From the NCBI GenBank assembly GCA_013287775.1, contig JABDDE010000001.1, positions 7,245 to 71,244 of the forward strand: a stretch of 64,000 nt of DNA. Reading direction: 5' to 3'. This document shows, piece after piece, positions 12,398-61,436 of this stretch. The position numbers and the translations under genes were made by a program. Within the stretch, counting starts at the first letter, position 1, and every line of letters begins with the position of its first letter. This DNA comes from Chlamydiota bacterium. Lineage in GTDB: Bacteria; Chlamydiota; Chlamydiia; Chlamydiales; FEN-1388. The notes under the pieces are model-generated. The model was not told where the DNA came from. It was given only the letters and a program-made list of their open reading frames with translations, and made no database searches.

Positions 12398-12540
12398 ATT
12401 AACCTCATATATTTTTATATTTTTTAATAAAATTCATATATATCTATAATTATTGTTATAGCTTATCTTTATATTAAAAATTTATTATTTATTTTTCAAT
12501 AGTTATTTTTTTGTTATTTTCTATGATGGCGGCGCAAAAT

Positions 12541-13725: not shown

Positions 13726-13800
13726 AAATGTGTCCAAGTCCGTGAGAGTCATGGCCTTAGCCTGATGCATATGCCGCTGCCGCGGTGGGGTCCATATAAG
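13726..13800. repeat. Family-3 terminal module fused to the BIME-like cluster
   Basis: aaaatgtgtccaagtccgtgagagtcatggccttagcctgatgcatatgccgctgccgcggtggggtccatat matches the outer end of the foldback elements at 118-160, 32170-32223 and 37840-37883. Confidence 0.7.
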
Positions 13801-19114: not shown

Positions 19115-19164
19115 GATGTTTTCGATTCTACGAGAACAAGGGGATTATTTGCAATAGTAATAAT

Positions 19165-19204
19165 GTCATGTGCAAATTTTCCTGACGGAAAATTTGCACA
19201 TGAC
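19165..19204. repeat. PE-1 hairpin element (consensus-like, perfect)
   Basis: gtcatgtgcaaattttcc tgac ggaaaatttgcacatgac followed by gaaaat. Confidence 0.95.
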
Positions 19205-19209
19205 GAAAA

Positions 19210-26310: not shown

Positions 26311-26351
26311 ACGTCATGCACCATTTTCCGTAGGAAAATGGTGCATGACGT
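26311..26351. repeat. PE-1 hairpin element (perfect) abutting the stop of the HEAT-repeat gene
   Basis: acgtcatgcaccattttcc gta ggaaaatggtgcatgacgt; the stop codon is at 26352-26354. Confidence 0.95.
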
Positions 26352-29303: not shown

Positions 29304-29354
29304 GACATAAGTATAGCAAAATTTTACTACAAAATCATGTGTTTTTTTAGTAAG

Positions 29355-29390
29355 GTGACGTTAAGTGCGAATTTTCCTGTGAGAAATATT
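29355..29390. repeat. PE-1 hairpin element, degenerate, directly upstream of the ATG at 29391
   Basis: gtgacgttaagtgcgaattttcc tgtg agaaatatt. Confidence 0.5.
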
Positions 29391-31493
29391 ATGAGAATAG
29401 ACTTATCACAACATGATCTTGTGACGCCAGATGGCAAAATTGTCTCCATTACAAAAAAAGATGATGGGATAAGTATGGCCGAGGTGGTGATTGAACATAT
29501 TCATTCTTCCTTTGTGGGGTTTGATATCGATCCAGCGCTTGTTACTTTTAATATTAAGAGTACGCTTGCGCAGCTGGGCATTAATGGGATTGGGATGCAC
29601 TATGAGCTGCATCGAGGGCATAGCAAGGCTATGGTTCTTGTAGAGCTTAGGGCTATCGGCTCGATTGGGCGCGAGCTTTTGCAAGAGCTACCTCTGGGAG
29701 CATACATAGGCAAGCTTTTTGCTGCCGATGAGCGAAGACGCGTTCGCGATCCTATCTATCTTTCTCGTATGTTTGGTCGCTCAGATCGTTGGGGAAGGCC
29801 TCTTTTATCGCTAGGAGGCTTACATGGCAGTGACGAGCTTATTTTGGACAAGATTGATGGTCGCACCGTTGCGTACCTTGCATTAAAAAGAGGAAAAATC
29901 ACCTATGATGCCTCGGTTTTTGGCTTTCTCAGAACGCTTGCAAAGGGGCTTACGACCAAGCACACGTTTCGAGAGCTGCTGCAGCTTCATCAGGAATGGA
30001 ATGCTGGTGCGTTTCGTAATGTCGAAGAGGATGAGATTTTACTTGTAAAAACGCAGCCTCTTCATATTCGCACCGTTTTTGCAAAAGTGGTAGATTCGCT
30101 CTTAGCTGCTGGTTATTGCCATACCACAGCATCTGTTTTACAGCCCGACACGCGTGCCTCAGGTGACATTTACGAATTTTATGGCAAATCAAAGCGAGAA
30201 ATTACAGATCTTCCTCTTGAATTTTACACTCTTGACCCATACAGAGAACATGTTTTCTTTGCAGATCGTGACCAGCTGCAAGCGTGTCTTGAGGATCCTC
30301 AGGCGCTCTTTAAAGCCTTTGAGACAGCTCCGAAGCCCACAGAGGTCCCTGTGGCTACGTTTGTTGTGAAGGGTTCACAGCTTCTTTCCTTGGCGGCAGA
30401 TGATTGGGTGGCTCGTGAATCAACTTTTCATGACTTTCCCGGTATTACTCATGGGGCGCGGCAGGCCTTTTTAGTGGAGCGATATATTGAAAGTCAGGCA
30501 GTATTTCCTTTTTTGAAGGCCATAGAAGAGGGTCGTATTACGAGTCAAGGGGTGTTATTTCTCCGCTATTTCCCCTCTCCCATGATGAAGAGGATGCTTC
30601 TTTCTGCAGCGGTAGCCCGTTCTGTGCAGGGGATTTATTTCCAACATCCCTCTAGATCTTATGGGGGCTTTTTTTCGCAAGAGGATCGAGCACTACTTAC
30701 AGACCTTCATAAGTTTGCCATTGGAGTGTTTTGGGTGGATGCTATTTCGGGAAAAATCCTCCAGTACATGCAGCGTAAAGATCGAGAGTCCGGCATGTTT
30801 GTCCCTATTGGAAGGGGTGAGGAATATATGAAGGCAACGGTATTTGGAGTATATGGCTCAAACTTAATTTCAGGTCACTTTGAAGAAGAGCTGCAAGCGT
30901 TATTGAAAGGAGTGCTGGAGCTTCGAAATACCGTGCATCATCCGCTTTTACAAAAAGATACCCCTCTAGCGCTCATCACGGGAGGTGGTCCCGGTGCCAT
31001 GGAAGTGGGCAACCGCATTGCCAGGAAGCTTAATATCCTTTCATGCGCCAATATTGCAGACTTTCATGAAGAAGGCGGGGTAGTCAATGAGCAAAAACAA
31101 AATCCCTACGTGGATGCAAAGATGACCTACCGCCTGAAGCAATTAGTGGAGCGACAATCGGAATTTAATCTCGACTTTCCCATTTTTGTCATGGGAGGTA
31201 TTGGTACTGACTTCGAATTTACGCTTGAAGAGGTACGTAGGAAAGTCGGGGCTACTGCTGCAACTCCTGTGCTTCTTTTTGGAGAAATCGAATACTGGAA
31301 AAGCAAAATCACGCCCCGTTTTTTGCAAAATAAACAGAGCGGTACCATTGTAGGATCCGAATGGGTAAGCAATTGCTTTTTCTGCATCCAAAAAGCCACG
31401 CAGGGGCTAGAAATTTATTCTCAGTTTTTTCATGGCACGTTGCCAATAGGAAAAAATGGGGCAGAAACGGATGTAGGATTTGTCTGTCCTTAA
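29391..31493 (+). CDS. Large protein with a C-terminal LOG/TIGR00730 (lysine-decarboxylase-like) Rossmann domain
   Basis: LITGGGPGAMEVGN...FVMGGIGTDFEF (PGGxGTxxE-like). I do not recognise the ~500-aa N-terminal region. The start was trimmed past the repeat-derived leader. Confidence 0.6.
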   Translation: MRIDLSQHDLVTPDGKIVSITKKDDGISMAEVVIEHIHSSFVGFDIDPALVTFNIKSTLAQLGINGIGMHYELHRGHSKAMVLVELRAIGSIGRELLQELPLGAYIGKLFAADERRRVRDPIYLSRMFGRSDRWGRPLLSLGGLHGSDELILDKIDGRTVAYLALKRGKITYDASVFGFLRTLAKGLTTKHTFRELLQLHQEWNAGAFRNVEEDEILLVKTQPLHIRTVFAKVVDSLLAAGYCHTTASVLQPDTRASGDIYEFYGKSKREITDLPLEFYTLDPYREHVFFADRDQLQACLEDPQALFKAFETAPKPTEVPVATFVVKGSQLLSLAADDWVARESTFHDFPGITHGARQAFLVERYIESQAVFPFLKAIEEGRITSQGVLFLRYFPSPMMKRMLLSAAVARSVQGIYFQHPSRSYGGFFSQEDRALLTDLHKFAIGVFWVDAISGKILQYMQRKDRESGMFVPIGRGEEYMKATVFGVYGSNLISGHFEEELQALLKGVLELRNTVHHPLLQKDTPLALITGGGPGAMEVGNRIARKLNILSCANIADFHEEGGVVNEQKQNPYVDAKMTYRLKQLVERQSEFNLDFPIFVMGGIGTDFEFTLEEVRRKVGATAATPVLLFGEIEYWKSKITPRFLQNKQSGTIVGSEWVSNCFFCIQKATQGLEIYSQFFHGTLPIGKNGAETDVGFVCP

Positions 31494-31549
31494 CCTATGA
31501 CGACCGCAAAATCCGGTGGATTTTGTGGTCGCCATAGGTTAAGGACAGA
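31483..31549. terminator. 67-bp near-perfect palindrome overlapping the stop codon at 31491-31493
   Basis: tctgtccttaacctatgacgaccgcaaaatcc ggt ggattttgtggtcgccataggttaaggacaga; 32-bp arms with 2 mismatches. Confidence 0.55.
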
Positions 31550-31560
31550 CAATTGATATC

Positions 31561-32370: not shown

Positions 32371-32426
32371 TGTATTCTTCCATGTTATGGGATGTGCTTG
32401 CACATCCCATAACATGGAAGAATACA
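32371..32426. promoter_or_regulatory. 56-bp perfect palindrome (26-bp stem, 4-nt loop) 50 nt upstream of the BON/DUF1207 gene
   Basis: tgtattcttccatgttatgggatgtg cttg cacatcccataacatggaagaataca; a T6 run lies at 32433-32438. Confidence 0.5.
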
Positions 32427-34034: not shown

Positions 34035-37000
34035 CTATGTGCGTGCTCTGGAATGAGAACTCATAATCTCCCTCCACTTATTCACGATCGCCGCCGCAAT
34101 AGGCGCTGCATCCTTACCATAGCCCCCATAACGCAAATATACCACCACGACAAGCTCAGGATCTTGGAAGGTAAAGACGCCATTATTTTGTGGAAAGGCA
34201 ATACCCCCATACCAGATATGACGATACATATGAGGGGTGTCACCCACATCGAGGCCTATTCGCTCAACTACTTCTGAGGTACTTGTTTTCCCAATAAGCC
34301 CTTGCATTGCAGTAAACTCCTTATAGACACGCGGTAAAAAATGGCAGCCTGCACCTATAAAGCGTTTTCGCTTATATTCTTCTTGTGCATGGGAGGTACA
34401 GCGACGCATGCCCTCAAAGAGTGTGTTTTGAATTTCAACAGGCAAAAAAACGCTCCTGCGCACGTGTCTGGAGAACTCTTCTACCTCATTTACAGAACTT
34501 GGTTGCTCTGAAATGGTTCTTCCAGCGGCAAGGAGGGCAATTTGAGGACGCAGGAGATCCCCGCCATTGGCAAGTGCCGCAATCATGCAAGAGCTTTGAA
34601 GGGGAGTGTTGACAAGAGTGTGTTGCCCAATAGCAGTTGCATACAGCCCCGTTTTATTGGTCGCGATATCTTGTGGAAGGTTGCCTTTGATCTCGTAGGG
34701 GAGCTGTATGCCACTTTTTTCTCCATACCCAAAATCTTGGGCACATTGAATAAGCGTGGTAGGATCGTGTAGGAAATCGCCTGCGAGAAGGGAAAAATAA
34801 GGATTTGAGGAGGTCTCTATAGCGCGAAGAAGATTCATGGTGCCAAGATGAAGATTCAAGCTTTTTGGAATTCTGCCTCCTTTATAAAGCTGTGGGATGG
34901 GTTGACCATTTGAAAAATTGCCAACAAAGGTTTTCCCATGCATTTTGTAATAGTGATCTGAGATTTCAAAAAGCTGCATATCTTTTGGAGACACGCTGCC
35001 CTGCTTTTCAAGGTAGAGTTGTTTTAAGGCGGTATATCCCGTAATGAGCTTGAAGATCGATCCTTGGATAGAAGATTCACGAAACGCATATGAGCGCAAA
35101 TAATGCCCACTTACTGATTTCATAAATGACGAAGCAAGGGATTTTGCATCAGTGCCAAGTCCACGATAGCGGCCATATAAAGGATGTGTTATATCCATAT
35201 ACCCTTTGCATATGTGCAAAAGCTCTGGGGCATAAGGAAAGAGTGGTTTTATTTTGTCATGAAGCTCTGCAAAGCGCTCAATATAGGGCTCAAGCTCTAC
35301 AAATTCAGTTCCAAATGCTGCAGAGTTTTTTGTGCATGCAAAGGTTAAGAGTGCCTCTTTCCATTTTTTCCAAAATGCATCAAAGGCTTCCTTTTCATGC
35401 TTGTCTATATATTCTAAATAGGGGCGAGGATATTTGCCTGCTCGCTTTTCTTCTACTCGTTTTGCTTGTAAAAATGCCTTTTCATGGGTACTTCGCCAGG
35501 CTTTCATAGTATGAAGGCGAAATATTTTTTTTGCCTCTTTTTTGAGAAGCTCAGATATAAAAACAGCTGTCGATGAAAGCGCACGAAATTCACGTATGCT
35601 ATAGCGGCTAAGCTCAGTAGCTGCTGCTCCTCGAGTGTTTATCTCTTCTGCTTGGATGATAAGACGGCTAAGATCCAGAAGCAAAAGGCGCTCTTTTGTA
35701 TTTTGAAGGGGCTGCAGCGCTCTGTCAAGGACTGCCTTGTAGGTGGCGACATCTTGCAAAAACTGGCCTACATATGGCTCATCGCCTTGTTCATAGAGGA
35801 GTGACATCACCTCTTCAGGGCTTAATGTAGGGGCTCTTTTGAGTATTTCGTTAAAAGCACTTTGAAGCGCAATGATATGTTCGAGAGAGGTGTTTTCTGA
35901 TAGAAGAGTTTTGATAGGGCAATGTGGGGGCAGTATCCATTCCAGAAACCTATCCCATTCAAGAAGCTCTTCTTTTTCTTGCATGCTGCCGTCAGGGCCA
36001 ACTTCTTCTTGTACAAGGCCGATTTTTTGATTCCAAGTTGCGGCTTCATACTCTTCATTCTCAATCCAGCGCTTTACATTTTCATTGGCTTGTATAAAGT
36101 CATTAGGATCAAATCTGGGAAAGCTTGCCAGAGCAACGACTTGCCCATTTTTTGGATCAATTGCTACGATGCTACCACCGCGAATCCATGGCTCTTTATA
36201 ACGCTCATGTGTTTTTTCTTGTTCTTGCTTAGCTGCACTTTTGCGCACTTTTTCACTTTCTGCAAGAAGTTTTTCTGCATATTCTTGGAGCTGCAGTGAG
36301 ATTGAGAGCACTAAGCGCTTACCTGAAAGAGGTGGCTGCGATTGCAGGCTTCGCACGAAATTGCCTTTAGCATCAGAAAAATATTCTTCTTTACCATAAA
36401 ACCCTCGCAAGTAGTTCTCAAAAGAGGCTTCAACTCCAAGTGTGCCTATATGATCATTTATGGTGTAGGCTCGCTCTTGCAGCTCTGTCAGGCTTTTTTT
36501 TGCCTCTTCAATAGTGGTAAAAGGTGCTGGAAGTCCAAGACCCAGTTCTGCTACAGTGATTGCCGAGGCAGTAGTGTGGATGTCAGAGAGCACTTTTTCA
36601 TACTGCTCTTTTTGTATGGGTGCAAGATATCCAAGAATATGACAGAGCGCCTTGCCATGAGGATAGCTGCGCTTTGGAATACGCTCGACATGCAATCCTG
36701 GCCAGTCTTTTTCAAGCATTTTGAGTCGATAATATTCTTGTTCTGTAAGATGATTTTTGAGGATGTAAGGAATATTATTATTCTGAGCGGCGTATGAATA
36801 GATGAGGTCAACGACTCGCTCTTGATCAAGCCCTACCTCACGCTCGATCAGTTCAGCGAGGGCGCGAATATACATTTTGCGAAGATATACCTTGCGTCTC
36901 TCTCCAGTACTCGTTTTGTCAAAAATGACTTGGGGAATCTCACGAAGAGAAGCATAGATGATACCAAGACGAAAATCTGTAGTGTTTGTTGCAAGTACAA

Positions 37001-37283
37001 TATTAAAGCGATCGCGGATGGTGCCGCGCTCTGCTGCTTGTACGACCACTTTTGTGCGTGCCAGAAATGCCTCTTCTGATTTTTTGTCGTGCTGGATAAT
37101 AGCCAAATGCCACAGGCGCAGCGCAATAAGCAAAAGCAAAAAAAGCACTACATTCAGAAGACGGTTAGCCTTTACTGGAATGGATGCAAGGGATGGAGAG
37201 TGGTCTCGGCGTATATTTCTCACACCATTATGGTATTTTGTTTGTGAAAAAAACGCAACATACGTGTATAATGGAGACGTCAT
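34035..37283 (-). CDS. Penicillin-binding protein 2 (transpeptidase), long chlamydial type
   Basis: N-terminal TM with SxxK (GSIFKLITGY), SxN (SSNPYF) and a KTG-like motif (GKTSTSE). The ~1080 aa length matches chlamydial PBP2. The start codon lies within a PE-1 arm. Confidence 0.85.
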   Translation of the reverse strand: MTSPLYTYVAFFSQTKYHNGVRNIRRDHSPSLASIPVKANRLLNVVLFLLLLIALRLWHLAIIQHDKKSEEAFLARTKVVVQAAERGTIRDRFNIVLATNTTDFRLGIIYASLREIPQVIFDKTSTGERRKVYLRKMYIRALAELIEREVGLDQERVVDLIYSYAAQNNNIPYILKNHLTEQEYYRLKMLEKDWPGLHVERIPKRSYPHGKALCHILGYLAPIQKEQYEKVLSDIHTTASAITVAELGLGLPAPFTTIEEAKKSLTELQERAYTINDHIGTLGVEASFENYLRGFYGKEEYFSDAKGNFVRSLQSQPPLSGKRLVLSISLQLQEYAEKLLAESEKVRKSAAKQEQEKTHERYKEPWIRGGSIVAIDPKNGQVVALASFPRFDPNDFIQANENVKRWIENEEYEAATWNQKIGLVQEEVGPDGSMQEKEELLEWDRFLEWILPPHCPIKTLLSENTSLEHIIALQSAFNEILKRAPTLSPEEVMSLLYEQGDEPYVGQFLQDVATYKAVLDRALQPLQNTKERLLLLDLSRLIIQAEEINTRGAAATELSRYSIREFRALSSTAVFISELLKKEAKKIFRLHTMKAWRSTHEKAFLQAKRVEEKRAGKYPRPYLEYIDKHEKEAFDAFWKKWKEALLTFACTKNSAAFGTEFVELEPYIERFAELHDKIKPLFPYAPELLHICKGYMDITHPLYGRYRGLGTDAKSLASSFMKSVSGHYLRSYAFRESSIQGSIFKLITGYTALKQLYLEKQGSVSPKDMQLFEISDHYYKMHGKTFVGNFSNGQPIPQLYKGGRIPKSLNLHLGTMNLLRAIETSSNPYFSLLAGDFLHDPTTLIQCAQDFGYGEKSGIQLPYEIKGNLPQDIATNKTGLYATAIGQHTLVNTPLQSSCMIAALANGGDLLRPQIALLAAGRTISEQPSSVNEVEEFSRHVRRSVFLPVEIQNTLFEGMRRCTSHAQEEYKRKRFIGAGCHFLPRVYKEFTAMQGLIGKTSTSEVVERIGLDVGDTPHMYRHIWYGGIAFPQNNGVFTFQDPELVVVVYLRYGGYGKDAAPIAAAIVNKWREIMSSHSRART

Positions 37284-37318
37284 ATGTCATTTTCCTAACG
37301 GAAAACGACATATGACGA
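37277..37318. repeat. PE-1 hairpin element containing the PBP2 start codon
   Basis: acgtcatatgtcattttcc taac ggaaaacgacatatgacg followed by aaaatag. Confidence 0.85.
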
Positions 37319-37335: not shown

Positions 37336-37406
37336 GCGCCTGTAGTTCAATGGTAGAACTGTAGCCTTCCAAGCTACGAGTGTCAGTTCGATTCTGACCA
37401 GGCGCT
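37336..37406 (+). tRNA. tRNA-Gly (anticodon TCC)
   Basis: 71-nt cloverleaf: acceptor gcgcctg/caggcgc, anticodon loop ctTCCaa and T-loop ttcgatt. Confidence 0.9.
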
Positions 37407-37883: not shown

Positions 37884-37911
37884 AGTTCCAATTGGGCATG
37901 TTCTAATTTTC

Positions 37912-37950
37912 GTCATGTGTAATTTTCCGTTAGGAAAATTCACACATGAC
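37912..37950. repeat. PE-1 hairpin element (reverse orientation) abutting the stop of the BNR gene
   Basis: (attttc)gtcatgtgtaattttcc gtta ggaaaattcacacatgac. Confidence 0.9.
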
Positions 37951-39671
37951 TAGTCTTTATGCATCATGCGTGTGAGCAGTTCATGTACATGCTTTTTGTG
38001 AGCCTCTACGATGGTAACAAAGGGGGCTTGCCGCTTGTTCTTATCAAGGATGACGATGGCATGGTGCTCACGGTCAAACAGAAGCCTTTCTGGTTTTTTA
38101 AAGGGCCCATTAAATGATTTTGTGTAGATAGCATACAGCTTACTCTTCTGAGCCACTAAGAAAGGATAGTCGCCATCTACCATGTTGCCTTGCGTCGTTG
38201 TTGGTCCATGTTGAACTATATATGACTTTTTAGAAAGTCGCAGTTCTTTGACAAAGTTAAGGCCAGCTTTGGTGCTGCCTCCATTTTGTTTTTCAACCTC
38301 ATTATATACTGCAAGCCACGCATCGATCTTGGTTTTATTGATATGTGCCTTGTTATCGTTTCTGAGATCAAAGTACAAAACTCCTAGCTGTCCATCTTCA
38401 GTGATAGCAACGAATGGAGAAAATGCTTGAGGGTTTTTGGCATGTTTCGGTGTTCGGCTGATGCGTACGGGCTTAGACCATGTTTGGCCGCCATCTCGAG
38501 AGGAAGAGATCGCAATTTGGGGTAGCTTGTCATCGCGAAAGTGGCCTGTTTGCCATACGGCATACAGAAATCCATTTGCTGGATTTACGCAGAATGCAGG
38601 GATGATGTCTCCAGCTCTAATTAAGGCTCCAATGCCACCTGAAATATGGCCATGTTTGTACGTGTAGCCGCCCGTGAAGACTAAATTGCCATCGAGTGGA
38701 TGTACTACATGAGCATGTTTTTCCCACGTTTTTCCCTGATTTTTAGAGCGCACAAATGCTATATCGAATTTTGTATGCTGATAGGGGAATATATCGTTCG
38801 TATATTGCGCATCTGTCACACCAGGTTTGGCGAAGATGCGTACCATGAAGTTGAGCAGGTCCCCATTCATATGTGGTTTTTTGCCTTTCGGAAGGACAAC
38901 CACAATATTATTGACTGTTGAGTTGTCATTCAAAATGCCATTGCTGTGATTGTGTGCGATAAGGTCTGGAAATGGATCGTAGAGTACTTTATGGGGTGTC
39001 CACGTCTTACCACCATTTTTTGTACGGCTGATTTCTGTATGTGAGTGAAAAGAAATGGCTTGATCAAAGCGATCCCACACAGCATAGGCAAGGTCAGAAT
39101 AGTTGGGGTCGGCAGTAATTGAGGTCTTGTCGTCGAGTGCAAATAAACCTGTGGGCTCATTTAATGACTCCTGACTCGATGCAAGAAAATAGGGCTTACC
39201 CCAGTGCGCGCCACCATCTTTTGACACTGTAACAACGACGCCTTGTTGATTTTGGGTATTGCGCTCTGTTTTTGCATTGATGAAAATAGCAATGAGATAG
39301 ACACGGCTGCCGTCTTTTGAAAAGCTCAGCCATGTATCTGTGACCCTTTGCGAGATGCCGCCATTACATATCTGAAACGGTACTGTACTGTTTTTCCATG
39401 TTTTGCCGCCATCTTTAGAATAGGCAATGCCCGCCTCTAATGCACCAGCATTTGAAATTCTATCTTGTTGCCAGCAGGTAACGATATTATTTGTGTTTTT
39501 CGGATTGACCGCTATTGTCGGCTCTACAGCTGCACCAACATGAATGGTAGTTGTTGCATTATATACTTCTTGTTGTTTTAAGCAGTGGCGGCTATAGTGT
39601 GTTGCAAAGCCCTGAGACATCATTGTCAGGGCAGCTAATGCCCATGCTGCTAAAATGGAAAATTTTCTCAT
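37950..39671 (-). CDS. Secreted BNR/Asp-box repeat protein (sialidase/exo-alpha-sialidase-like beta-propeller)
   Basis: Signal peptide plus five SxDxGxTW boxes (SKDGGKTW, SKDGGAHW, TKNGGKTW, SKNQGKTW, SRDGGQTW). Confidence 0.75.
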   Translation of the reverse strand: MRKFSILAAWALAALTMMSQGFATHYSRHCLKQQEVYNATTTIHVGAAVEPTIAVNPKNTNNIVTCWQQDRISNAGALEAGIAYSKDGGKTWKNSTVPFQICNGGISQRVTDTWLSFSKDGSRVYLIAIFINAKTERNTQNQQGVVVTVSKDGGAHWGKPYFLASSQESLNEPTGLFALDDKTSITADPNYSDLAYAVWDRFDQAISFHSHTEISRTKNGGKTWTPHKVLYDPFPDLIAHNHSNGILNDNSTVNNIVVVLPKGKKPHMNGDLLNFMVRIFAKPGVTDAQYTNDIFPYQHTKFDIAFVRSKNQGKTWEKHAHVVHPLDGNLVFTGGYTYKHGHISGGIGALIRAGDIIPAFCVNPANGFLYAVWQTGHFRDDKLPQIAISSSRDGGQTWSKPVRISRTPKHAKNPQAFSPFVAITEDGQLGVLYFDLRNDNKAHINKTKIDAWLAVYNEVEKQNGGSTKAGLNFVKELRLSKKSYIVQHGPTTTQGNMVDGDYPFLVAQKSKLYAIYTKSFNGPFKKPERLLFDREHHAIVILDKNKRQAPFVTIVEAHKKHVHELLTRMMHKD

Positions 39672-41044: not shown

Positions 41045-42175
41045 TCACATAATCCCGTTTTGCAAAAGGGCTTCCTGGACCATCTTGAGGCTATATGGAC
41101 CATCATTATTTTTTAGTGGAGCAAAGCAAGTACTTCTGTCATAGACGACAACTCCTGCATTTTCTGACTCCTCCAAAATATCAAAGATAAAATACTCAAA
41201 TTTCCATGCTGGAGGAAGCTCTGGCGCAGGTTTTTTATGGGCTTTGTGTAAAGGAAGTGTATGTTTTGAAGTTACAAATTTTCTAATAAAGGCGAGGCTG
41301 AAACAAAAATTGCTGATATTAGCAAAGGGAAAAAGCAGCGCTCCAGTACTATCACGGGCGTTTTGTATTTCCTCAGATACTTCAAAATATTCACATACTT
41401 TAAGGTGTTTCCCCTGCTCTACGATAATGCCAAGGTGCTCTGCAGGATCTGTTTTTTTCATTGCCATTCTTTTCATTGCTATTCTTTCGATTGCTTTTAC
41501 GGTAATATCTCTATTTGCCAAGATATGTGAGCCGATAAGTTCTGCATCAAAGGGGTCTGCAAGGGGATTGTCGACGCAGATGACGACAATGTGTTCGATG
41601 CCTTGTTTTTCCCACGCTTGCAAAAGGCCGCAAGATTCCATATTCCAAAACAGTGAGCCATTGCCATCTGGCCCTTGCAGAGGGATGCCATCTGGTCCGA
41701 TGATATACTTTCCTGCATCGTCTAAAAAGGGAAGTGTGCTTTGCATAAAAAAGGATAATGAGTCTTTTGGTAGTCCAAAAAAATTATGACTTTGGAAAAA
41801 GGCATTTGTGGCGTCATGATTTTGTGCTGCAGTCATGCATGCAACAGACAGGGCTCTTTCCACTTGCGCGTTGCAAGCAATTATTTTCTCTGCAAATATT
41901 TGAAAAAGGCTTTTATGCAGGATTGGAGAAACAGAGATCATCCCTTTTGGGGTTGTGATCCCTAGCCTGCTTGCTTGGCCACCTGCAAGAATAACGCTAC
42001 CCACTTTGCCTTCTCGCAGCGCAATTTTTCCTGCCTCTTGTGCTTTTCGATTTGGAGCACGCTCAAAAGAGACAAGTGGCGAAAAGGTGCATGCAGGCTT
42101 CGGTGCTTCATGCAAACACGCAAGCTGTGAGTTATATACGGTATTATTCATGGAAACATCGTATAGTCTCTTCAT
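41045..42175 (-). CDS. UDP-sugar pyrophosphorylase (UDPGP family, eukaryote-type UDP-GlcNAc pyrophosphorylase-like)
   Basis: ILAGGQASRLG..PKGM and GPDGNGSLF motifs. The start is uncertain (ATG at 42175 or 42151). Confidence 0.8.
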   Translation of the reverse strand: MKRLYDVSMNNTVYNSQLACLHEAPKPACTFSPLVSFERAPNRKAQEAGKIALREGKVGSVILAGGQASRLGITTPKGMISVSPILHKSLFQIFAEKIIACNAQVERALSVACMTAAQNHDATNAFFQSHNFFGLPKDSLSFFMQSTLPFLDDAGKYIIGPDGIPLQGPDGNGSLFWNMESCGLLQAWEKQGIEHIVVICVDNPLADPFDAELIGSHILANRDITVKAIERIAMKRMAMKKTDPAEHLGIIVEQGKHLKVCEYFEVSEEIQNARDSTGALLFPFANISNFCFSLAFIRKFVTSKHTLPLHKAHKKPAPELPPAWKFEYFIFDILEESENAGVVVYDRSTCFAPLKNNDGPYSLKMVQEALLQNGIM

Positions 42176-43214
42176 ATACTTCGTCAACCGAGATTTGCAT
42201 CATACAGCGAAAATCGATGGGGCAAACTCTACGATAGCATGGACTGCATGAGACATGTTTATGAATAACACTGCCCCATTTATAAGGGCCAGTTTTGACC
42301 TCGTTAGTGGATCCAAAAATGGCTACAAGAGGTTTTCGTAAGGCGGCAGCAATATGCATGGGGCCACTGTCGTTGGTGACAAAGGCAGATGAAGTGTCTA
42401 CAAGGGCAATAAATTGTCTGAGAGTTGTTTTGCCAGCAAGGTTCACAACGCGTGGAGGAAAGTGTCGCACGATGTCGTCAACAAGTGTTTTTGTGTCCTG
42501 ATCCCCAAAATAGAGAACACGGCAGCGCATATCTTCTATAAGGCGATGTGTGAGTGCTATGAAGCGCTCTTTCGGCCAGCATTTGGCTGGTCCAAAAGCA
42601 GCTCCTGGATTGATTCCTATAATACGATGAGTATCAGAAACCCCATATGCCTCCAAGGTAGCCCACGCTTGTTTTTTTTCTTGCGCACTGACGTAGAGTG
42701 TGGGGCGTGTTAGGCTCGAGCTTTGCCCTGTAATTGGGTTGAGGAGTGCCTTATACATCTCTACTTCATGTACTTGTTCGGAGTTTTTTGGACGACATGC
42801 TGGATGAGTCAGCAAAAGACGGCGAAAATGCATGCTATAGCCTATGCGTACTGGGATTTTCGCTTTCCAGAACCACCATGCTGACGAAAATGAGTTTGTG
42901 GTGAGCAGACCTATATCAAATTTATGGTGTTTTAAATCGGCAATAATTTTTGGGACGTTTTTTTCTTTTTTTGAGAACGCAATAACCCCATCTACAAAAG
43001 GGCTCTCTTTCACAAGTTCACAAATTGAGAGATGCCCCAAAATAAACACCTCAGCATGTTTATTCCATGCTTTTATGTCTTCGAGTACTGGCAGAGCCAT
43101 GACAGCATCGCCAATCCAATTGGGCATGCGGACAATTATTTTTGTTTTCTCATGGTGTGAGCACCCTTGCAGGGAGCTCACATCATGAGAAAAATCGATG
43201 TTTTTTTCTGACAT
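42144..43214 (-). CDS. Glycosyltransferase family 9 (ADP-heptose:LPS heptosyltransferase II-like)
   Basis: IVRMPNWIGDAVMALP, GINPGAAFGPAKCWP and VTNDSGPMHIAAAL. Confidence 0.85.
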   Translation of the reverse strand: MSEKNIDFSHDVSSLQGCSHHEKTKIIVRMPNWIGDAVMALPVLEDIKAWNKHAEVFILGHLSICELVKESPFVDGVIAFSKKEKNVPKIIADLKHHKFDIGLLTTNSFSSAWWFWKAKIPVRIGYSMHFRRLLLTHPACRPKNSEQVHEVEMYKALLNPITGQSSSLTRPTLYVSAQEKKQAWATLEAYGVSDTHRIIGINPGAAFGPAKCWPKERFIALTHRLIEDMRCRVLYFGDQDTKTLVDDIVRHFPPRVVNLAGKTTLRQFIALVDTSSAFVTNDSGPMHIAAALRKPLVAIFGSTNEVKTGPYKWGSVIHKHVSCSPCYRRVCPIDFRCMMQISVDEVYEETIRCFHE

Positions 43215-43287
43215 TTATTTAGACTCTTGTTTTTTTTAACATAAATTCGTTATGCTACGCATAATGTTTTTTCATGGACGTCAATAT

Positions 43288-44346
43288 ATGACAAAGTTAA
43301 TTTTTTATTTGCTGTCAGTTCTGTTATTCGTATGGAGCAGTCTTGTTTGCGATGAGCAAATAAGGCATGCAAACATGGCACATGAGGGTGTGGCAGTTGA
43401 GGAGCCGGTTGATATTGTATATACATGGGTAGATGGCGCTGATCCGCGTTGGCAAGTGATTCGCAGGTACTGGCAGACGGAATATATGCACTATCTTACG
43501 AATTCGGACTCAATTTCTTCGTGTCGGTATAAAAATCGTGACGAGTTGAAATATTCGCTACGTTCAGTGTATCAGTTTGCTCCATTTGTTCGCCATATCT
43601 ACATCATCACCTTTAACCAGGTGCCTGCATGGTTGCAATCAGATCCTCGAATTACTATTGTGGATCACAGCGTGATTTTTCGAAATACTGAGGACCTGCC
43701 TACGTTTAATTCCCAAGCCATCGAGTGCAATCTCCATCGCATTCCAGGACTCTCAGAGCGATTTATCTACCTGAATGACGACGTGTTTTTTGGCTCAGAA
43801 GTAACTGTGGATGATTTTTTCACAAAAGATGGCGGCATTATTGTCACTCTCAGCAAACACTTGGCAGCTCGTGGAAAAAATACAGGCCTAGAATCTACCT
43901 ACGAAAGTGCGTGGAAGAATGCGACAGCCCTCTTAAATAGCAATTTTAAAAAAGAAAGGCGCTTTAGGATGGCTCATGCCCCGTTTGCCTTTACAAAAAC
44001 ACTCTTCAAAGAGGTGGAAAATTATTTCTTCTATATTTTTGATCTGGTGATATCGCATAAATTTCGTCTCCCTTCCGATTTTCCCGTCATCAATGGCGTC
44101 ATTCAATATTATGCGTTCTATACAAAAAGGGCCGAGTTTGGGCAAGCGGCTGCAGGGCAAGTGCGCATTACCGATGATGTAGTGAAGAATGAGGAAGCCT
44201 TAAAGGCCTTCGAAGGCACTCCTTGGAAGTTTTTTTGCGTGCAAGATGTTACGGAAAGTGATGATCCAGTAATAGATGTTCAAGTTAAGGAATTTTTTGA
44301 ATTTCTCTACCCAAATCCTGCCCCCTGGGAGCGCAGAACAGATTGA
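43288..44346 (+). CDS. Stealth-family hexose-1-phosphoryltransferase (capsule phosphotransferase / GNPTAB-like)
   Basis: Stealth CR1 DIVYTWVDGADPRW, CR2 NRDELKYSLRSV..RHIYIIT and CR3 FNSQAIECNLHRIPGLSERFIYLNDDVFF. N-terminal TM. Confidence 0.85.
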   Translation: MTKLIFYLLSVLLFVWSSLVCDEQIRHANMAHEGVAVEEPVDIVYTWVDGADPRWQVIRRYWQTEYMHYLTNSDSISSCRYKNRDELKYSLRSVYQFAPFVRHIYIITFNQVPAWLQSDPRITIVDHSVIFRNTEDLPTFNSQAIECNLHRIPGLSERFIYLNDDVFFGSEVTVDDFFTKDGGIIVTLSKHLAARGKNTGLESTYESAWKNATALLNSNFKKERRFRMAHAPFAFTKTLFKEVENYFFYIFDLVISHKFRLPSDFPVINGVIQYYAFYTKRAEFGQAAAGQVRITDDVVKNEEALKAFEGTPWKFFCVQDVTESDDPVIDVQVKEFFEFLYPNPAPWERRTD

Positions 44347-44396
44347 GGATTTTATTGGCGAGGTATATAATGACACCCAATTATTTGGCAGGCACC

Positions 44397-44454
44397 GGGA
44401 GAGGATATGTTATTCTACTACCCCGAGCTTGCGAGGGGTAGTAGGATAACATGA
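44397..44454 (+). promoter_or_regulatory. 15-codon uORF plus an 18-bp hairpin overlapping the murA SD and start
   Basis: GGGAGAGGA, then ATG at 44407 and MLFYYPELARGSRIT, with TGA at 44452-44454 overlapping the murA ATG (44451). Arms 44407-44424 / 44435-44452 pair with one G-U. Confidence 0.5.
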
Positions 44455-45785
44455 CACTAATAATACGCGGAGGAACACCTCTGAGTGGCGAGGTGCAAGT
44501 AGCGGGAGCAAAAAATGCAACGACAAAGCTGTTGGTTGCATCACTTCTTTCTGACAAGCGATGCACCTTGTATAATGTCCCGAACATTGGGGATGTTGAA
44601 ATAACCGTTGCTTTATGCAAAGAAATGGGAGCAGAGGTTACTTGGGATAAAAAAGAAAAAACGCTCTCCATAATCACTCCAGAGCTCAAAACTTCCTATA
44701 TTTCCCAGCGGTTTTCTGGGGCTAATCGTATTCCTATTCTTATGATAGGAGCGCTTCTAGGGCGCACGGAAGAAGACATTATTGTCCCAACAGCTGGAGG
44801 CTGTAAGCTGGGGCCGCGTGCAATTGATTTTCATATTGATGCCCTACAAAAACTGGGCGCAACTATTGAACTTCGCGAGATGAAGAAAGAGGCGGCCTAT
44901 TTTGCCCATGCGCACAATGGCCTCAAAGGCGCTGTCATCAATTTGCCCTATCCTTCTGTCGGCGCCACTGAAAACAGCATTCTCGCTGCAGTTTCTGCCA
45001 AGGGGACAACTATTATTAAAAATGCCGCAGTAGAGCCTGAAATTGTCGACCTCATCCTCTTTTTGCAGAAACTCGGTGCCAATATCTCCATCGAGACAGA
45101 TCGGACGATTGTTATTCACGGGACGAAAAAATTTTATGAAGTAGAACATACAGTCATGCCAGATAGGAATGAGGCCGCCTCATTTGCGATGGCGGCCATC
45201 AGCACCAAAGGGCGTGTGTTTGTACGAGGCGCACAGCATCGAGACATGATGTGCTTTTTGAATAAAATTCGTGAACTCGGTGGCGGTTTTCATATTAAGC
45301 ACGACGGTATTGAATTCTTTTATGATGGCGCTCTTCAGGGGGGATGCCACTTAGAGACCGATGTGCATCCAGGTTTTTTAACCGACTGGCAACCACCCTT
45401 TGTCGTGCTTCTTACCCAGGCGTCAGGGGTGTCTGTCGTACATGAGACGGTTTACGAAAATCGCTTCGGCTATACTACCGCCCTCAAGGAAATGGGCGCA
45501 CAAATTGCGCTTTATAAACAATGCCTTGGTGGAAAAAATTGCAGATTTTCGACAAATGCACACTATCATAGCATTGCGATTAGCGGCCCCACACCACTTT
45601 CTGGAAAGACTATTTCAATTCCTGATTTGCGCGCGGGTTTTGCCTATGTTATGGCAGCGCTTATCTCACCCGAAGAGAGCACTCTTTCAGGTCTACATTT
45701 TATTGATCGTGGTTATGAAGATTTAACCACAAAACTAGAACAGCTCGGTGCAACCATTTGCCGAGCAAAAGAGAGTCATGTGTAA
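44451..45785 (+). CDS. murA: UDP-N-acetylglucosamine 1-carboxyvinyltransferase
   Basis: GGTPLSGEVQVAGAKNATTKLLVASLL. The active-site loop PTAGGCKLGPRAIDFH retains Cys. The last codons and stop lie in a PE-1 arm. Confidence 0.95.
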   Translation: MTLIIRGGTPLSGEVQVAGAKNATTKLLVASLLSDKRCTLYNVPNIGDVEITVALCKEMGAEVTWDKKEKTLSIITPELKTSYISQRFSGANRIPILMIGALLGRTEEDIIVPTAGGCKLGPRAIDFHIDALQKLGATIELREMKKEAAYFAHAHNGLKGAVINLPYPSVGATENSILAAVSAKGTTIIKNAAVEPEIVDLILFLQKLGANISIETDRTIVIHGTKKFYEVEHTVMPDRNEAASFAMAAISTKGRVFVRGAQHRDMMCFLNKIRELGGGFHIKHDGIEFFYDGALQGGCHLETDVHPGFLTDWQPPFVVLLTQASGVSVVHETVYENRFGYTTALKEMGAQIALYKQCLGGKNCRFSTNAHYHSIAISGPTPLSGKTISIPDLRAGFAYVMAALISPEESTLSGLHFIDRGYEDLTTKLEQLGATICRAKESHV

Positions 45786-45813
45786 TTCTCCTGGCGGCAG
45801 AATTACACATGAC
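45775..45813. repeat. PE-1 hairpin element containing the murA stop codon
   Basis: gtcatgtgtaattctcc tggc ggcagaattacacatgac followed by gaaaaaa. Confidence 0.85.
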
Positions 45814-45854
45814 GAAAAAATCAGCTATATGCAATTTTGCGATAGGAAAATTAT

Positions 45855-45893
45855 GCCATGTGCGACTTTTCCTGACGGAAAAGTGCACATGGC
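45855..45893. repeat. PE-1 hairpin element
   Basis: gccatgtgcgacttttcc tgac ggaaaagtgcacatggc followed by gaaaatag. Confidence 0.9.
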
Positions 45894-45977
45894 GAAAATA
45901 GCGCACATAGTGCCAATACAATTAACGCGAGGCGCGACTTACGAGCTGTTCGAATTGTAAGGATTCATAGCCTTTTC

Positions 45978-47213: not shown

Positions 47214-48764
47214 ATGTCCAACGTAACCCAAGAATTTAGCAAATGGCGTGCCTTTTTTTGGCCCATTCATGCTTTTGAACTGAAAAAGATCTTGCCGATG
47301 TTTTTCATGTTCTTTTTTATATCTTTTAACTATACGATCCTTCGTGATACAAAAGATACGATTATCGTAACGTCTGCAGCTGGAGCTGCGGCAATTCCGT
47401 TCCTAAAAGTGGGTGGAGTGCTTCCGGCGGCGATTATTATCATGCTTATTTACTCTAAGTTGAGTAATATACTAAGCAAGACAAACCTGTTCTACACAAC
47501 TGTGGCGCCGTTCCTTCTGTTTTTTGGCCTATTTCCGGTTGCGATTTATCCGTTTAGGGATGCATTGCAAATGGATAGCATAGCTAATTTCCTTCATGGC
47601 AGCCTGCCTGCAGGATGGAGTGGCTTTGCAGAAAGCGTGCGCAATTGGCACTACTCACTCTTCTACATCCTTTCTGAGTTATGGGGATCGGTAGTTCTTT
47701 CGCTTCTCTTCTGGGGATTTGCGAATGATATTACCAAGACCGGTGAAGCAAAGCGCTTTTATAGCCTCTTCGGTTTAGGTGCTAACCTTGCCCTTATGGT
47801 GTCAGGACCCTTTATTAGCAAAGTATCCGATATTCGACGCTATTTACCAGCAGATGTGGATGCTTGGCAGGTATCGTTAAATTATCTTATGACAGGCGTG
47901 GTGGTAGCAGGGATTGGTGTGATTGCGCTCTATGCGCTTATGCAGCGTTATGTACTTACTGATAGTCGTTTCTACGATCCGTCAGAGCTTAAAGCTGCTA
48001 AGAAGCCGAAGTCAAAGATGTCTATGACAGACAGCTTCTTGTTCTTGGCACGATCACCATATATCTTGTGCTTAGCACTTCTTGTGATCGCTTATGGTGT
48101 ATCTATTAACCTTGTTGAGGTGACATGGAAAAACCAATTGAAATTGCAGTATCCCGATCCGAACGACTATAGCTCATTTATGGGTAATTTTTCGTTCTTC
48201 ACAGGTACTGTGACTGTGCTTATGATGCTTTTTGTCGGTGGTAATGCTGTACGAAAAGGATGGGGTTTTGCAGCAATGATTACTCCTGTGGTTCTTTTGA
48301 TTACAGGTGTTGCGTTCTTTGCCTTCATTCTCTTCCGTGACTCTCTTACTGGCTACATTGCTGCTCTTGGAACAACGCCGCTCATGTTGGCTGTGCTCTT
48401 TGGTGCTGCGCAAAACATTATGAGTAAGTCATCGAAGTACTCGCTCTTTGATCCGACGAAAGAGATGGCCTATATTCCTCTAGACCAAGAATCAAAGGTT
48501 AAAGGGAAGGCGGCTGTTGACGTGGTAGGTGCACGTCTTGGTAAGTCAGGTGGCTCTCTTATTCAAATTGCTCTTATGGGCGCGCTTGGCTCTATTTCTG
48601 CCATTACGCCATACATTGCAGCTATCTTATTTGTGATTATTGCAATATGGATGGTTGCTGTAAGGGTACTTGAGAAGAAGTTCTTAGCACTTTCTGCCGA
48701 AAAAGAAGGCCGTCAGACAACTGTACAGCATCAGGATGCTAATAAGGCAGCTGTCACAGCCTAA
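47214..48764 (+). CDS. Nucleotide transporter (ADP/ATP translocase, NTT/Tlc family)
   Basis: FSKWRAFFWPIHAFELKKILPMFFMFFFISFNYTILRDTKDTIIVT is the typical Tlc/NTT N-terminus. About 12 TM segments and 516 aa. Confidence 0.92.
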   Translation: MSNVTQEFSKWRAFFWPIHAFELKKILPMFFMFFFISFNYTILRDTKDTIIVTSAAGAAAIPFLKVGGVLPAAIIIMLIYSKLSNILSKTNLFYTTVAPFLLFFGLFPVAIYPFRDALQMDSIANFLHGSLPAGWSGFAESVRNWHYSLFYILSELWGSVVLSLLFWGFANDITKTGEAKRFYSLFGLGANLALMVSGPFISKVSDIRRYLPADVDAWQVSLNYLMTGVVVAGIGVIALYALMQRYVLTDSRFYDPSELKAAKKPKSKMSMTDSFLFLARSPYILCLALLVIAYGVSINLVEVTWKNQLKLQYPDPNDYSSFMGNFSFFTGTVTVLMMLFVGGNAVRKGWGFAAMITPVVLLITGVAFFAFILFRDSLTGYIAALGTTPLMLAVLFGAAQNIMSKSSKYSLFDPTKEMAYIPLDQESKVKGKAAVDVVGARLGKSGGSLIQIALMGALGSISAITPYIAAILFVIIAIWMVAVRVLEKKFLALSAEKEGRQTTVQHQDANKAAVTA

Positions 48765-57239: not shown

Positions 57240-58007
57240 TTATAATTCAGGCACCACAACAAGATCAGGGTGCAGCTTAGCGCGCAGTACGTGTTGAATA
57301 TACGAAAGAGTTGCCCCCGTCGCTGAATGACAAGAGGTGCAGCTGCCCTGATACGCAATGCTTACTTCTCCATTTTTCGTGATATTGAGCACTTCGATCC
57401 CGCCGGCATCGAGCTCTATATAGGGCCTGATATCAGAGGCAATGACCTCTTCAAGAAGTGCAAGCTGCTGTTTTGTAGCCAGTTCTAAAAACCCAGGATA
57501 CCCTCCCTCAATTGCCTGGATTTCATGACCCATCACAGGTGGCGCGACGTAGCCATGCGCTAAGGGAATATGCCCACACTGCATGCTTGCGGCTTCAATT
57601 GCATCGACGACCATATTCAAGTGTGGATATACTGTTTGAGGAAATGCTGGGATATCATTTTTATCGCGCACATGCTTATCGATGAGGTCTGCAGTAATGC
57701 GATGGGCTTGATCGTAGTTCTTGCCAATCACAAGCTCGCAGGCAATCTCTGCTGCCGCAATGAGCGCAGTATTGCCGAAGGCTTGAAAGCGTGCATCGAT
57801 GATGACGCCATCTTCTGGATCGATAAGCCAGTAGAGGACCACTTTATTGCCATCATAGACCCCTCCTTCAACACCTTGCGCAAATTCAAGAGAGCGCTCT
57901 ATTGCATCCTCTTTAGTAAAGGTGCCGACGCAGTAAGGCGTATCTATCCGGAGCTGCACTTTTTTGCTGTACTCAGTCCAGGGAAAGGGGCGATATATTG
58001 TGTTCAT
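57240..58007 (-). CDS. NifU-like protein (degenerate IscU-like N-domain + NifU C-domain with CxxC)
   Basis: The C-terminus IRPYIELDAGGIEVL..GSCTSCHSATGATL is typical NifU. The N-domain aligns to IscU, but FQAFGNTALIAAAE replaces FGCGSAIASSS. Confidence 0.75.
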   Translation of the reverse strand: MNTIYRPFPWTEYSKKVQLRIDTPYCVGTFTKEDAIERSLEFAQGVEGGVYDGNKVVLYWLIDPEDGVIIDARFQAFGNTALIAAAEIACELVIGKNYDQAHRITADLIDKHVRDKNDIPAFPQTVYPHLNMVVDAIEAASMQCGHIPLAHGYVAPPVMGHEIQAIEGGYPGFLELATKQQLALLEEVIASDIRPYIELDAGGIEVLNITKNGEVSIAYQGSCTSCHSATGATLSYIQHVLRAKLHPDLVVVPEL

Positions 58008-59155
58008 AATAACGTTTTTGATAATTTTCGTAGGCGTACTATGGCCTCGCCTATAATTGTAGCAGCTTTTTCAATATCGTGCTCGGTTGTAAACTTTGAA
58101 AGACTGAAGGAGAGTGTACATGAGGCGATGATATGATCGATACCTGAAGCTTCTACGACGCGTTCAATATGCTGCTCGCAGCCGCCGCCCATGGTGGCAA
58201 AGACCCCTTTTTTGCTCAGGGCATAGAGGAGTGCTTCGCTTCGTATGCCATAAAAGGCAATGGCTGAAGTGGTCGGCAGCCGCTCGCTTTCTTTGAATAA
58301 CACGCTCGCTTCGGGACATTGCTGGATAATACGCTCTTCAAAGAGGTCACGCAGGCGTGCTACTTCACTACAATAGAGGGTGCTACTTTGCTCTGCTTCT
58401 ATACACGCTTGTCCCAGCGCAATTTCGAGAGGTACGTTTATAGGGCCACCGCGAAAGCGCGTCTCTTGCCCATCACCTGCTATGAGAGGGATAAGCGGTG
58501 TCCCTTTTCGTGCAAAAAGGCCGCCAGTGCCCTTAGGGGCATGCAGCTGTTCACCATTGAAGGTAAGATAATCGGCACCAAGCTCGGCAAAGTCGACAAG
58601 AAGTTTGCCAAGTGCATGGGTGACATCAATGTGCAGAAGAATCCCCCGCTCTTTACAAAGTGCAGCGATATCATATACGGGCTGTATAACACCTGTGAGG
58701 GCAGATGCTAGGGGAAGAGAGATGAGGCAGGTGCGAGGAGTAATTGCCTCGATGATGCTGTCTAGTGGCACATACCCCTCTTTTGACACTTTGGCCATTT
58801 GAAGGGCGCAGCCCTCTTCTTCTAATTTTGAAAGTGCATAAATCGTTGCCGCGTCCCCTATAGTGGATGTGATAAAATGGGTTTTGCCTGTTTGCCGCGC
58901 CACTTGTTCATACACAGAGTGAATGACTTGTGTTATTGATTCACTATATGATGATGTAAATACAAACAAATCATCCTCTTTGGCACCGGCGAGGTGGTAT
59001 ATAGCGTGTAGAGCCTTTTCGATAGGTCGCAATAGTTCTTGCCCCATCGCATGTGGGCAAGAGGGGCTAGCATAATGCTCCTCAAAGTAGGGCATCATGG
59101 CTAAGATAACCGTTTGAGAGGGTTTTGTTGCTGTGTTGTTGTCTAGGTATGTCAT
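58004..59155 (-). CDS. Cysteine desulfurase-like class-V aminotransferase-fold protein (NifS/IscS-like); the PLP lysine is apparently substituted
   Basis: MTYLDNNTATKP.., HIDVTHALGK and a Cys loop MGGGCEQH. At the SGHKxxGPKG position it reads NGEQLHAPKG. The start was trimmed to the ATG at 59155. Confidence 0.75.
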   Translation of the reverse strand: MTYLDNNTATKPSQTVILAMMPYFEEHYASPSCPHAMGQELLRPIEKALHAIYHLAGAKEDDLFVFTSSYSESITQVIHSVYEQVARQTGKTHFITSTIGDAATIYALSKLEEEGCALQMAKVSKEGYVPLDSIIEAITPRTCLISLPLASALTGVIQPVYDIAALCKERGILLHIDVTHALGKLLVDFAELGADYLTFNGEQLHAPKGTGGLFARKGTPLIPLIAGDGQETRFRGGPINVPLEIALGQACIEAEQSSTLYCSEVARLRDLFEERIIQQCPEASVLFKESERLPTTSAIAFYGIRSEALLYALSKKGVFATMGGGCEQHIERVVEASGIDHIIASCTLSFSLSKFTTEHDIEKAATIIGEAIVRLRKLSKTLL

Positions 59156-59159
59156 ATAT

Positions 59160-59195
59160 TGTACTCGTGTTCTCGCAAGCGAGAACACGAGTACA
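59160..59195. promoter_or_regulatory. 36-bp perfect palindrome 5 nt upstream of the nifS-like ATG
   Basis: tgtactcgtgttctcgc aa gcgagaacacgagtaca; it is preceded on the minus strand by tatact. Confidence 0.45.
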
Positions 59196-59301
59196 GTATA
59201 TGATATAAAACTGTCCTGAATCAATCGTTTTTTGTAGAGAATACTTTCCTTTAAAGGTATATTAGGCTACGATGGTACCACATGAATGTGGAGAGTTGGC
59301 T

Positions 59302-61201: not shown

Positions 61202-61214
61202 AGCCAAAAACCAC

Positions 61215-61253
61215 GCCATATGCGACTTTTCCTTACGGAAAAGCGCACATGGC
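61215..61253. repeat. PE-1 hairpin element
   Basis: gccatatgcgacttttcc ttac ggaaaagcgcacatggc followed by ggaaata. Confidence 0.9.
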
Positions 61254-61270
61254 GGAAATATTTTCAGGAA

Positions 61271-61370: not shown

Positions 61371-61390
61371 TAGATTCGGAAAAATATTTT

Positions 61391-61431
61391 TGTCATGTGC
61401 AATTTTTCGATAGAAAAATTCGCACATGACA
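61391..61431. repeat. PE-1 hairpin element 6 nt from the response-regulator stop
   Basis: tgtcatgtgcaatttttc gata gaaaaattcgcacatgaca. Confidence 0.9.
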
Positions 61432-61436
61432 CAGCA

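Follow-up and report, generated by a model that had tools for sequence, protein, structure and literature searches.

In the stretch of DNA analysed here, a palindrome sits on the translation start of murA, so that a single RNA stem is predicted to hide the murA ribosome-binding site and a 15-codon upstream open reading frame (uORF) spans the entire hairpin, its stop overlapping the murA start codon. This stretch (the window, 64,000 nucleotides in all) comes from an uncultured chlamydia-like bacterium. We tentatively read the palindrome as a young one, by which murA translation is probably depressed, and it may then be partly rescued by constitutive termination-reinitiation at the AUGA overlap, with no evolved sensor or attenuator.

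MurA is the enzyme for the first committed step in making peptidoglycan, and the peptidoglycan of chlamydiae is limited to a septal ring. The protein search gave the MurA of the window 79% identity to its best metagenomic chlamydial matches and 72% to that of Parachlamydia, and its neighbours (an ADP/ATP translocase, a Stealth-family transferase and RfaF) are consistent with a chlamydia-like origin. The active-site Cys (GGCK) is retained. Homology makes the start at 44451 secure: an in-frame stop lies three codons 5' of the ATG (44442-44444), and the N-terminus MTLIIRGG matches the pattern M-x-x-L-x-I-x-GG in an alignment of about 55 chlamydial MurA proteins. The Stealth gene lies upstream on the same strand, and its product is a hexose-1-phosphoryl transferase with CR1-CR4 domains. 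The region 41045-45785 has a UDP-GlcNAc theme, comprising a putative UDP-GlcNAc pyrophosphorylase-like ORF (named by sequence alone), RfaF, Stealth and MurA. The start region is made up as follows.

44343-44371, + strand: promoter-like TTGAGG-17-TATAAT (10/12, a consensus match only), overlapping the Stealth stop codon
44397-44405, + strand: exposed purine tract GGGAGAGGA, Shine-Dalgarno (SD)-like for the uORF, followed by T and the ATG at 44407; anti-SD duplex -7.4 kcal/mol
44406-44424, + strand: 5' arm of the hairpin, with the uORF ATG and codons 1-6 (RNAfold and direct reading)
44407-44454, + strand: uORF of 15 codons, MLFYYPELARGSRIT (direct reading); its TGA (44452-44454) overlaps the murA ATG (44451-44453) as ATGA
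44425-44434, + strand: loop of 10 nt, GAGCTTGCGA
44435-44453, + strand: 3' arm of the hairpin, with the murA SD-like AGGA (44443-44446) and the murA ATG
44451-45785, + strand: murA, UDP-N-acetylglucosamine 1-carboxyvinyltransferase, 444 aa (PF00275; 79% identity to the nearest chlamydial MurA; conserved N-terminus)

The initial annotation had described an 18-bp pairing of 44407-44424 with 44435-44452 that buries the AGGA and the murA start, and all of its coordinates check. One of the 18 pairs is G.U, and RNAfold adds U44406.G44453 to give a 19-bp stem with a 10-nt loop. For the 61-nt segment the predicted folding energy is -30.4 kcal/mol, whereas its shuffles give -11.5 +/- 2.6 kcal/mol (z = -7.4); none of 200 shuffles folds equally well, and the same stem remains dominant in a 141-nt context. 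Its lower 8 bp hold a single G-C pair. An independent Logan assembly (SRR8434706) is identical over all of 2934 nt including the hairpin, so the palindrome is no one-off assembly artefact.

Both the minimum-free-energy and the centroid structure show this one dominant hairpin and no alternative, anti-sequestering fold. No T tract follows the stem (the tail is GACACTAATAATAC) and the terminator scan returned no entry here, so the hairpin does not qualify as an intrinsic (Rho-independent) terminator. Rfam 15 has no match in 44300-44500 at E <= 1, and over the whole window it yields tRNAs only. When further copies of the hairpin arms were sought within the window nothing rose above chance, and the sequence is unique there. 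A metagenome scan for the inner stem (CTACTACCCC-N6-14-GGGGTAGTAG) returned 65 matches, all of them unrelated hairpins; as the window's own contig lies outside that collection, the scan is silent on other copies in this genome. Solely through a common 10-nt inner stem, it brought up an unrelated repeated hairpin, ggccggacgtctccCTACTACCCCccaaaaaGGGGTAGTAGggaagcgcttttct, in L089, L090, L092, L093, L095 and about 20 further JGI contigs, often near contig ends.

Direct reading also agrees exactly with the uORF that had been proposed, of 15 codons from the ATG at 44407 behind GGGAGAGGA to a stop on the murA ATG: ATG TTA TTC TAC TAC CCC GAG CTT GCG AGG GGT AGT AGG ATA ACA TGA. It covers the entire hairpin, both arms, and its ATG is the mirror image of the murA CAT in the same stem. 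Since the stem includes the CAU of the murA start codon, an AUG falls automatically on the 5' arm, directly behind the exposed GGGAGAGGA. Among simulated stems covering a start-codon CAT, 3.8% had an ATGA-overlapping mirror ORF and 10% had any coupling-type stop. The peptide is dictated by the palindrome; it holds no regulatory codon run, and the relatives have no homologous uORF. A palindrome that covers a ribosome-binding site thus automatically makes a mirror ATG, and a coupling-like uORF arises fairly often as well; such geometry alone is not proof of evolved regulation.

The purine tract GGGAGAGGA is probably the ancestral murA ribosome-binding site. Its anti-SD duplex energy is within the top 5.5% of the window background. 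This genome makes weak use of SDs, with a median anti-SD duplex energy equal to background, so the tract may mean little. A promoter scan of the region gave 7 sites where 5.2 are expected from shuffles; TTGAGG-17-TATAAT is the sole promoter-like site nearby, 5' of the uORF, and would place the transcription start at about 44378, some 30 nt ahead of the uORF. A leaderless murA mRNA was considered and rejected, as no promoter-like site lies within the hairpin.

The cost of opening a 30S footprint (-12 to +15) was computed and compared over the 48 ORFs of the window. That of murA is 19.5 kcal/mol, where the median is 7.7 and the interquartile range 5.6-10.3, so that initiation at murA is computed to need about 12 kcal/mol more than initiation at a typical gene here; its SD-like AGGA alone takes 13.7 kcal/mol to open. 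The SD of the uORF, GGGAGAGGA, is single-stranded (1.7 kcal/mol). The uORF AUG and the first six codons form the 5' arm, however, so the uORF initiation site is at least as occluded as that of murA, with a footprint that takes 22.7-25.5 kcal/mol to open. At equilibrium the uORF is therefore no easier entry point, and coupling needs a kinetic or a standby argument: the uORF would be favoured only kinetically, through loading before the 3' arm is transcribed or through standby binding on the free SD.

Of the ways in which murA could overcome its penalty of about 12 kcal/mol, we prefer termination-reinitiation coupling, which could have come about as follows. A palindrome would have arisen between the ancestral ribosome-binding site GGGAGAGGA and the murA ATG, and its 19-bp stem, as computed, would bury the weak SD and the AUG of murA in the mRNA. 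The mirror AUG would thereby land behind the exposed ancestral SD, in a frame that happens to be open through the hairpin and to stop at the AUGA. MurA synthesis would probably be low. Ribosomes may load at the exposed SD, most easily co-transcriptionally ahead of the 3' arm, and those loaded would unzip the stem over the 15 codons and re-initiate at the overlapping murA AUG. Coupling is thus possible at murA as a compensating mechanism, as distinct from a demonstrated regulatory logic.

Somewhat unlikely, in our estimate, is that the palindrome is neutral or selfish and its mirror uORF meaningless and not usefully translated, in which case a low level of MurA would come from direct initiation on fraying of the AU-rich lower stem, or follow an RNase III-type cleavage that removes the 5' arm. 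The single G-C pair in the lower 8 bp, the greater occlusion of the uORF AUG and the expectation of a mirror ORF in 4-10% of such hairpins all suit this account. It has more difficulty with the SD-like tract at the right spacing (5.5%) and the ATGA overlap (3.8%), which are improbable jointly if independent, and with the penalty itself, which on an intact, conserved murA needs compensation; moreover, RNase III usually wants about two helical turns.

The initial annotation had named conservation in relatives as a check, and here the element fared poorly. We compared 51 chlamydial murA loci from a species-representative genome collection (60-75% MurA identity) together with the five closest relatives found by exact-protein look-up (L082, L084, L086, L087 and L088, with 77-79% identity; P0002 was left out). 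Neither the hairpin nor a conserved uORF is present at any of the 56 loci, which span 60-79% MurA identity, as expected also if the palindrome were a neutral by-product. Folds of 100 nt at the 51 loci range from -4 to -23 kcal/mol, against -35.5 kcal/mol in the window, the exception being L015 (-32 kcal/mol), where a TTG start is doubtful; in the five closest relatives the -60 to +20 regions give -8 to -13 kcal/mol. A few relatives (L009, L027 and L046) have chance ATGA mini-ORFs. No MurA relative closer than 79% identity was present in the protein database searched.

The five closest relatives carry a conserved box, AAAATTTTT..ACTTCATAATTGCATTTAGAG..GAGTACAA, ahead of murA, which is probably the promoter (TTGCAT-17-TACAAn). 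It lies 28-36 nt from the murA ATG in L084, L086 and L087, about 50 nt in L088 and about 100 nt in L082. Four of the five (not L082) have a divergent TLC nucleotide-transporter gene upstream of murA. In the window the nucleotide transporter is downstream of murA (47214-48764) and Stealth is upstream instead; the murA locus has thus been rearranged.

These results also bear on what had been called classic translational coupling or attenuation. The part that stands is a coupling-competent geometry: the stem hides the AGGA and the AUG, the uORF and murA overlap at AUGA, an SD is exposed, and a promoter-like site lies upstream. Set against this are a uORF start that is itself in the stem, a mirror ATG that is forced, conservation at 0/56 loci, a palindrome-rich genome and the absence of attenuator features. 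With no alternative structure, terminator or regulatory codon run, the word "attenuation" is without basis. We consider it very doubtful that uORF and hairpin are an evolved, condition-responsive regulator of murA, in which translation of or stalling on the uORF is modulated by, for example, amino-acid or cell-wall status or developmental stage. This would suit the geometry, the place of murA at the committed step of peptidoglycan synthesis and the probable start of pbp2 in another hairpin foot (see below), and is opposed by the lack of an alternative structure, a terminator or a conserved peptide, by absence from 56/56 of the relatives examined, by the position of the uORF start inside the stem and by the lack of an Rfam match.

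The murA hairpin looks like a young, lineage-specific palindrome, one of many in this genome. An insertion or inverted duplication of 41-44 nt, placed after the ancestral ribosome-binding site GGGAGAGGA and ahead of the murA ATG, is suggested by three soft observations. In the window, 35 nt separate the -10 element from the uORF ATG and 79 nt separate it from the murA ATG; the shorter spacing resembles that between the -10 element and the ATG of murA in L084, L086 and L087. L086 reads CCGGAG-8 nt-ATGACACTA where the window reads CCGGGAG...ATGACACTA; taking one AGGATA repeat and the 35 nt between the repeats out of the window leaves the 8-nt spacing of L086. The AGGATA pair, found by direct reading, brackets 41 nt and may be the footprint of an insertion or template-switch event.

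44402-44407, + strand: AGGATA direct repeat, copy 1
44443-44448, + strand: AGGATA direct repeat, copy 2, which includes the murA SD-like AGGA

This scenario depends on short matches (CCGGAG, AGGATA), and no insert-free allele was found. As L086 shows, CATGACACTA is native murA sequence; the ACATGACACTA foot was not imported.

Against random sequence the murA hairpin is far above chance, yet 26 long hairpins (12 bp or more, one mismatch allowed) occur in the window where shuffles have 1-2. This is 0.41/kb, compared with 0.11/kb in 319 kb of relatives and about 0.02/kb in shuffles, and the 3.6-fold excess over relatives again favours a palindrome that is a by-product. One family accounts for 12 palindromes.

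560-600, 4744-4786, 7182-7223, 19163-19206, 24444-24485 and 26311-26351: copies of the 12-copy palindrome family
37277-37318, 37910-37952, 45773-45815, 45853-45895, 61213-61255 and 61390-61432: further copies of the same family

Its members are near-perfect palindromes of 39-43 nt (GTCATGTG..TTTTCC / GGAAAA..CACATGAC; consensus ACGTCATGTGCAATTTTCC-loop-GGAAAAATnGCACATGACG) whose central positions differ between copies in a compensatory manner. Most adjoin stop codons, two of them in tandem at and just past the murA stop, and 319 kb of related chlamydial loci contain none. In its CGTCAT head the family resembles the CGTC-tagged REPs (PMC3733652), but its own tag is base-paired and its stems have twice the length. 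The murA-start hairpin had been suspected of membership from a common ACATGAC foot and was rejected: a covariance model of eight members gives it 11.2 bits (E = 1.4), like generic hairpins, and true members 31-59 bits. Enrichment of CATG in hairpin arms (13/28 hairpins against a 14% background) was likewise set aside, as two repeat families account for it and it adds no independent evidence.

Other repeats of the window are of different kinds. An ORF-free stretch of 1.3 kb (12500-13800) consists of interspersed and tandem repeats with units of about 67 nt and about 59 nt, some of them inverted, which carry hairpins such as CTTCATGCCGC-gaa-GCGGCATGAAG. The longest palindromes of the window are a perfect one with 27-bp arms upstream of a DUF1207 gene (32371-32426), which has CATGTTAT/ATAACATG in common with the murA hairpin, and one with 35-bp arms (94% complementary) that overlaps the end of ORF 29337-31493 (31480-31552). 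At 2968-5250, an ORF of 760 aa combines an MptE-like domain (residues 201-372) with MORN repeats (about residue 689), with the family palindrome 4744-4786 in frame between the two parts; translation from ATG 4780, in the foot of that hairpin, would yield a separate MORN protein of 156 aa, so this ORF may be two genes.

Hairpins are also common behind genes: 15 of the 48 ORFs, including murA, the next ORF and the nucleotide transporter, have one of -18 kcal/mol or stronger past the stop. The murA-start hairpin might accordingly be a 3'-end stabiliser or terminator of the Stealth gene that reaches murA incidentally and, as with REP elements in operons, sets a Stealth-high, murA-low ratio. We regard this as improbable. 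The proportion of genes with such hairpins (about 30%) speaks for it, as do the position of the hairpin, which is the first one downstream of Stealth, and the common strand of Stealth and murA. It begins, however, 61 nt past the Stealth stop, an atypical distance (13 of the 15 post-stop hairpins begin -13 to +20 from the stop), a promoter-like site lies in between, and it has no T tract, though none of the other hairpins has one either.

Highly improbable, in our judgement, is an action of the palindrome at the level of DNA, as a protein-binding operator or a cruciform promoter-proximal to murA, with the RNA structure irrelevant. A near-perfect inverted repeat does lie about 35-80 nt downstream of the promoter-like site. 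Its 18-bp arms and 10-bp spacer are far longer than typical operators, though, its sequence is unique in the window and not conserved in relatives, and dozens of unrelated palindromes occur elsewhere in the window.

Some other genes of the window have their starts in comparable places. The gene for a NifS/IscS-like cysteine desulfurase (58004-59224, - strand) has its homology-defined start, M24, in the 3' foot (ATATGA) of a 25-bp palindrome (59152-59203; -34 to -38 kcal/mol), the NCBIfam models beginning at residue 24-26, MTYLDNN. This start hairpin has no coupling-type uORF, so such genes seem to be expressed by another route, a point in favour of a by-product at murA as well. An upstream in-frame TTG or GTG would read through the nifS-like hairpin. 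In the PBP2 gene (1082 aa; 34035-37283, - strand), the only ATG before the transmembrane helix is in the 3' foot (CATATGACG) of the family palindrome 37277-37318, and a second peptidoglycan gene thus probably has a hairpin-embedded start; a tRNA-Gly lies near that palindrome, at 37336-37406. In the gene for RfaF (heptosyltransferase II; 42144-43214, - strand), a palindrome with 18-bp arms (43145-43193) falls within codons 8-23. The family model starts at residue 25, so this hairpin encodes a 24-residue N-terminal extension. An ATG in its 3' arm stands where the canonical start would be, but is shifted out of frame by one base and lies beside an A-run; an indel, an error of assembly or recoding of the start could explain this.

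Three start-in-foot cases were counted where a rough placement null expects about 0.9 (p about 0.06), an excess that is suggestive only. That this amounts to a genome-wide habit of the lineage is quite unlikely, the evidence being thin. On this reading, long palindromes would carry in the 3' foot the starts of envelope and housekeeping genes (murA, probably pbp2, the nifS-like gene and the rfaF extension) and together act as a global translational gate, which upstream ribosomes, an RNA helicase or RNase III would open, perhaps in step with the developmental cycle.

If termination-reinitiation coupling is real, the output of MurA would be set by a 15-codon mirror ORF, and the locus would provide an example of an essential gene that survived the landing of a palindrome on its ribosome-binding site. 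The case comes from one uncultured genome and is not conserved, so the weight of the finding is modest. The literature search found no paper on a murA uORF, nor on REP-like elements in Chlamydiae.

Hidden ribosome-binding sites opened by leader translation are known from tap-repA (R1) and repY-repZ (IncI/IncB), where a stem-loop hides the downstream site until the leader peptide is translated and terminated by the start. In these systems the leader begins outside the inhibitory stem, is conserved and is targeted by antisense RNA. The murA locus has a putative leader ORF and a predicted hidden ribosome-binding site as they do, without their outside start, their conservation or their antisense RNA. 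At ermC and secM-secA, a hairpin sequesters the downstream ribosome-binding site and a ribosome in the leader ORF melts the stem, for which an arrest peptide and alternative pairings are needed. Compared with the ermC, secM and trpL attenuators, the murA leader has no alternative fold, terminator, conserved arrest peptide or regulatory codon run; because its uORF runs through the whole stem, any translating ribosome would open it.

At iraD of E. coli, a structure sequesters the main SD, the stop of a leader ORF overlaps the main start, and dependence of translation on coupling is proven (PMC5574718). Initiation of the iraD leader ORF takes place in a separate, accessible region that CsrA controls (PMC5574718). 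As at iraD, the stop of the murA uORF overlaps the main start (ATGA, 44451-44454) and the murA ribosome-binding site is, in silico, sequestered in a stem that the uORF spans. Unlike at iraD, the uORF AUG lies within the same stem as the murA AUG, with the SD alone accessible, and unlike in the coupling type of iraD and tap-repA, the arrangement is conserved at none of the 56 chlamydial loci.

The Rickettsia palindromic elements are short palindromes that have multiplied in a lineage and lie at gene ends or even within genes. REP-type palindromes (PMC3733652) are likewise short, multiply in a lineage and occupy gene ends or positions within genes, with side effects on mRNA stability or translation. 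The GTAG- or CGTC-tagged REPs occur in multiple copies and have a stem of 5-13 bp with the unpaired tag at one end (PMC3733652). In contrast to these, the murA hairpin is present once in the window and has a 19-bp stem with an untagged foot, GTAG occurring inside the stem only. The murA element belongs to kinds that are known: a hairpin that sequesters a ribosome-binding site, an overlapping uORF and an extragenic palindrome.
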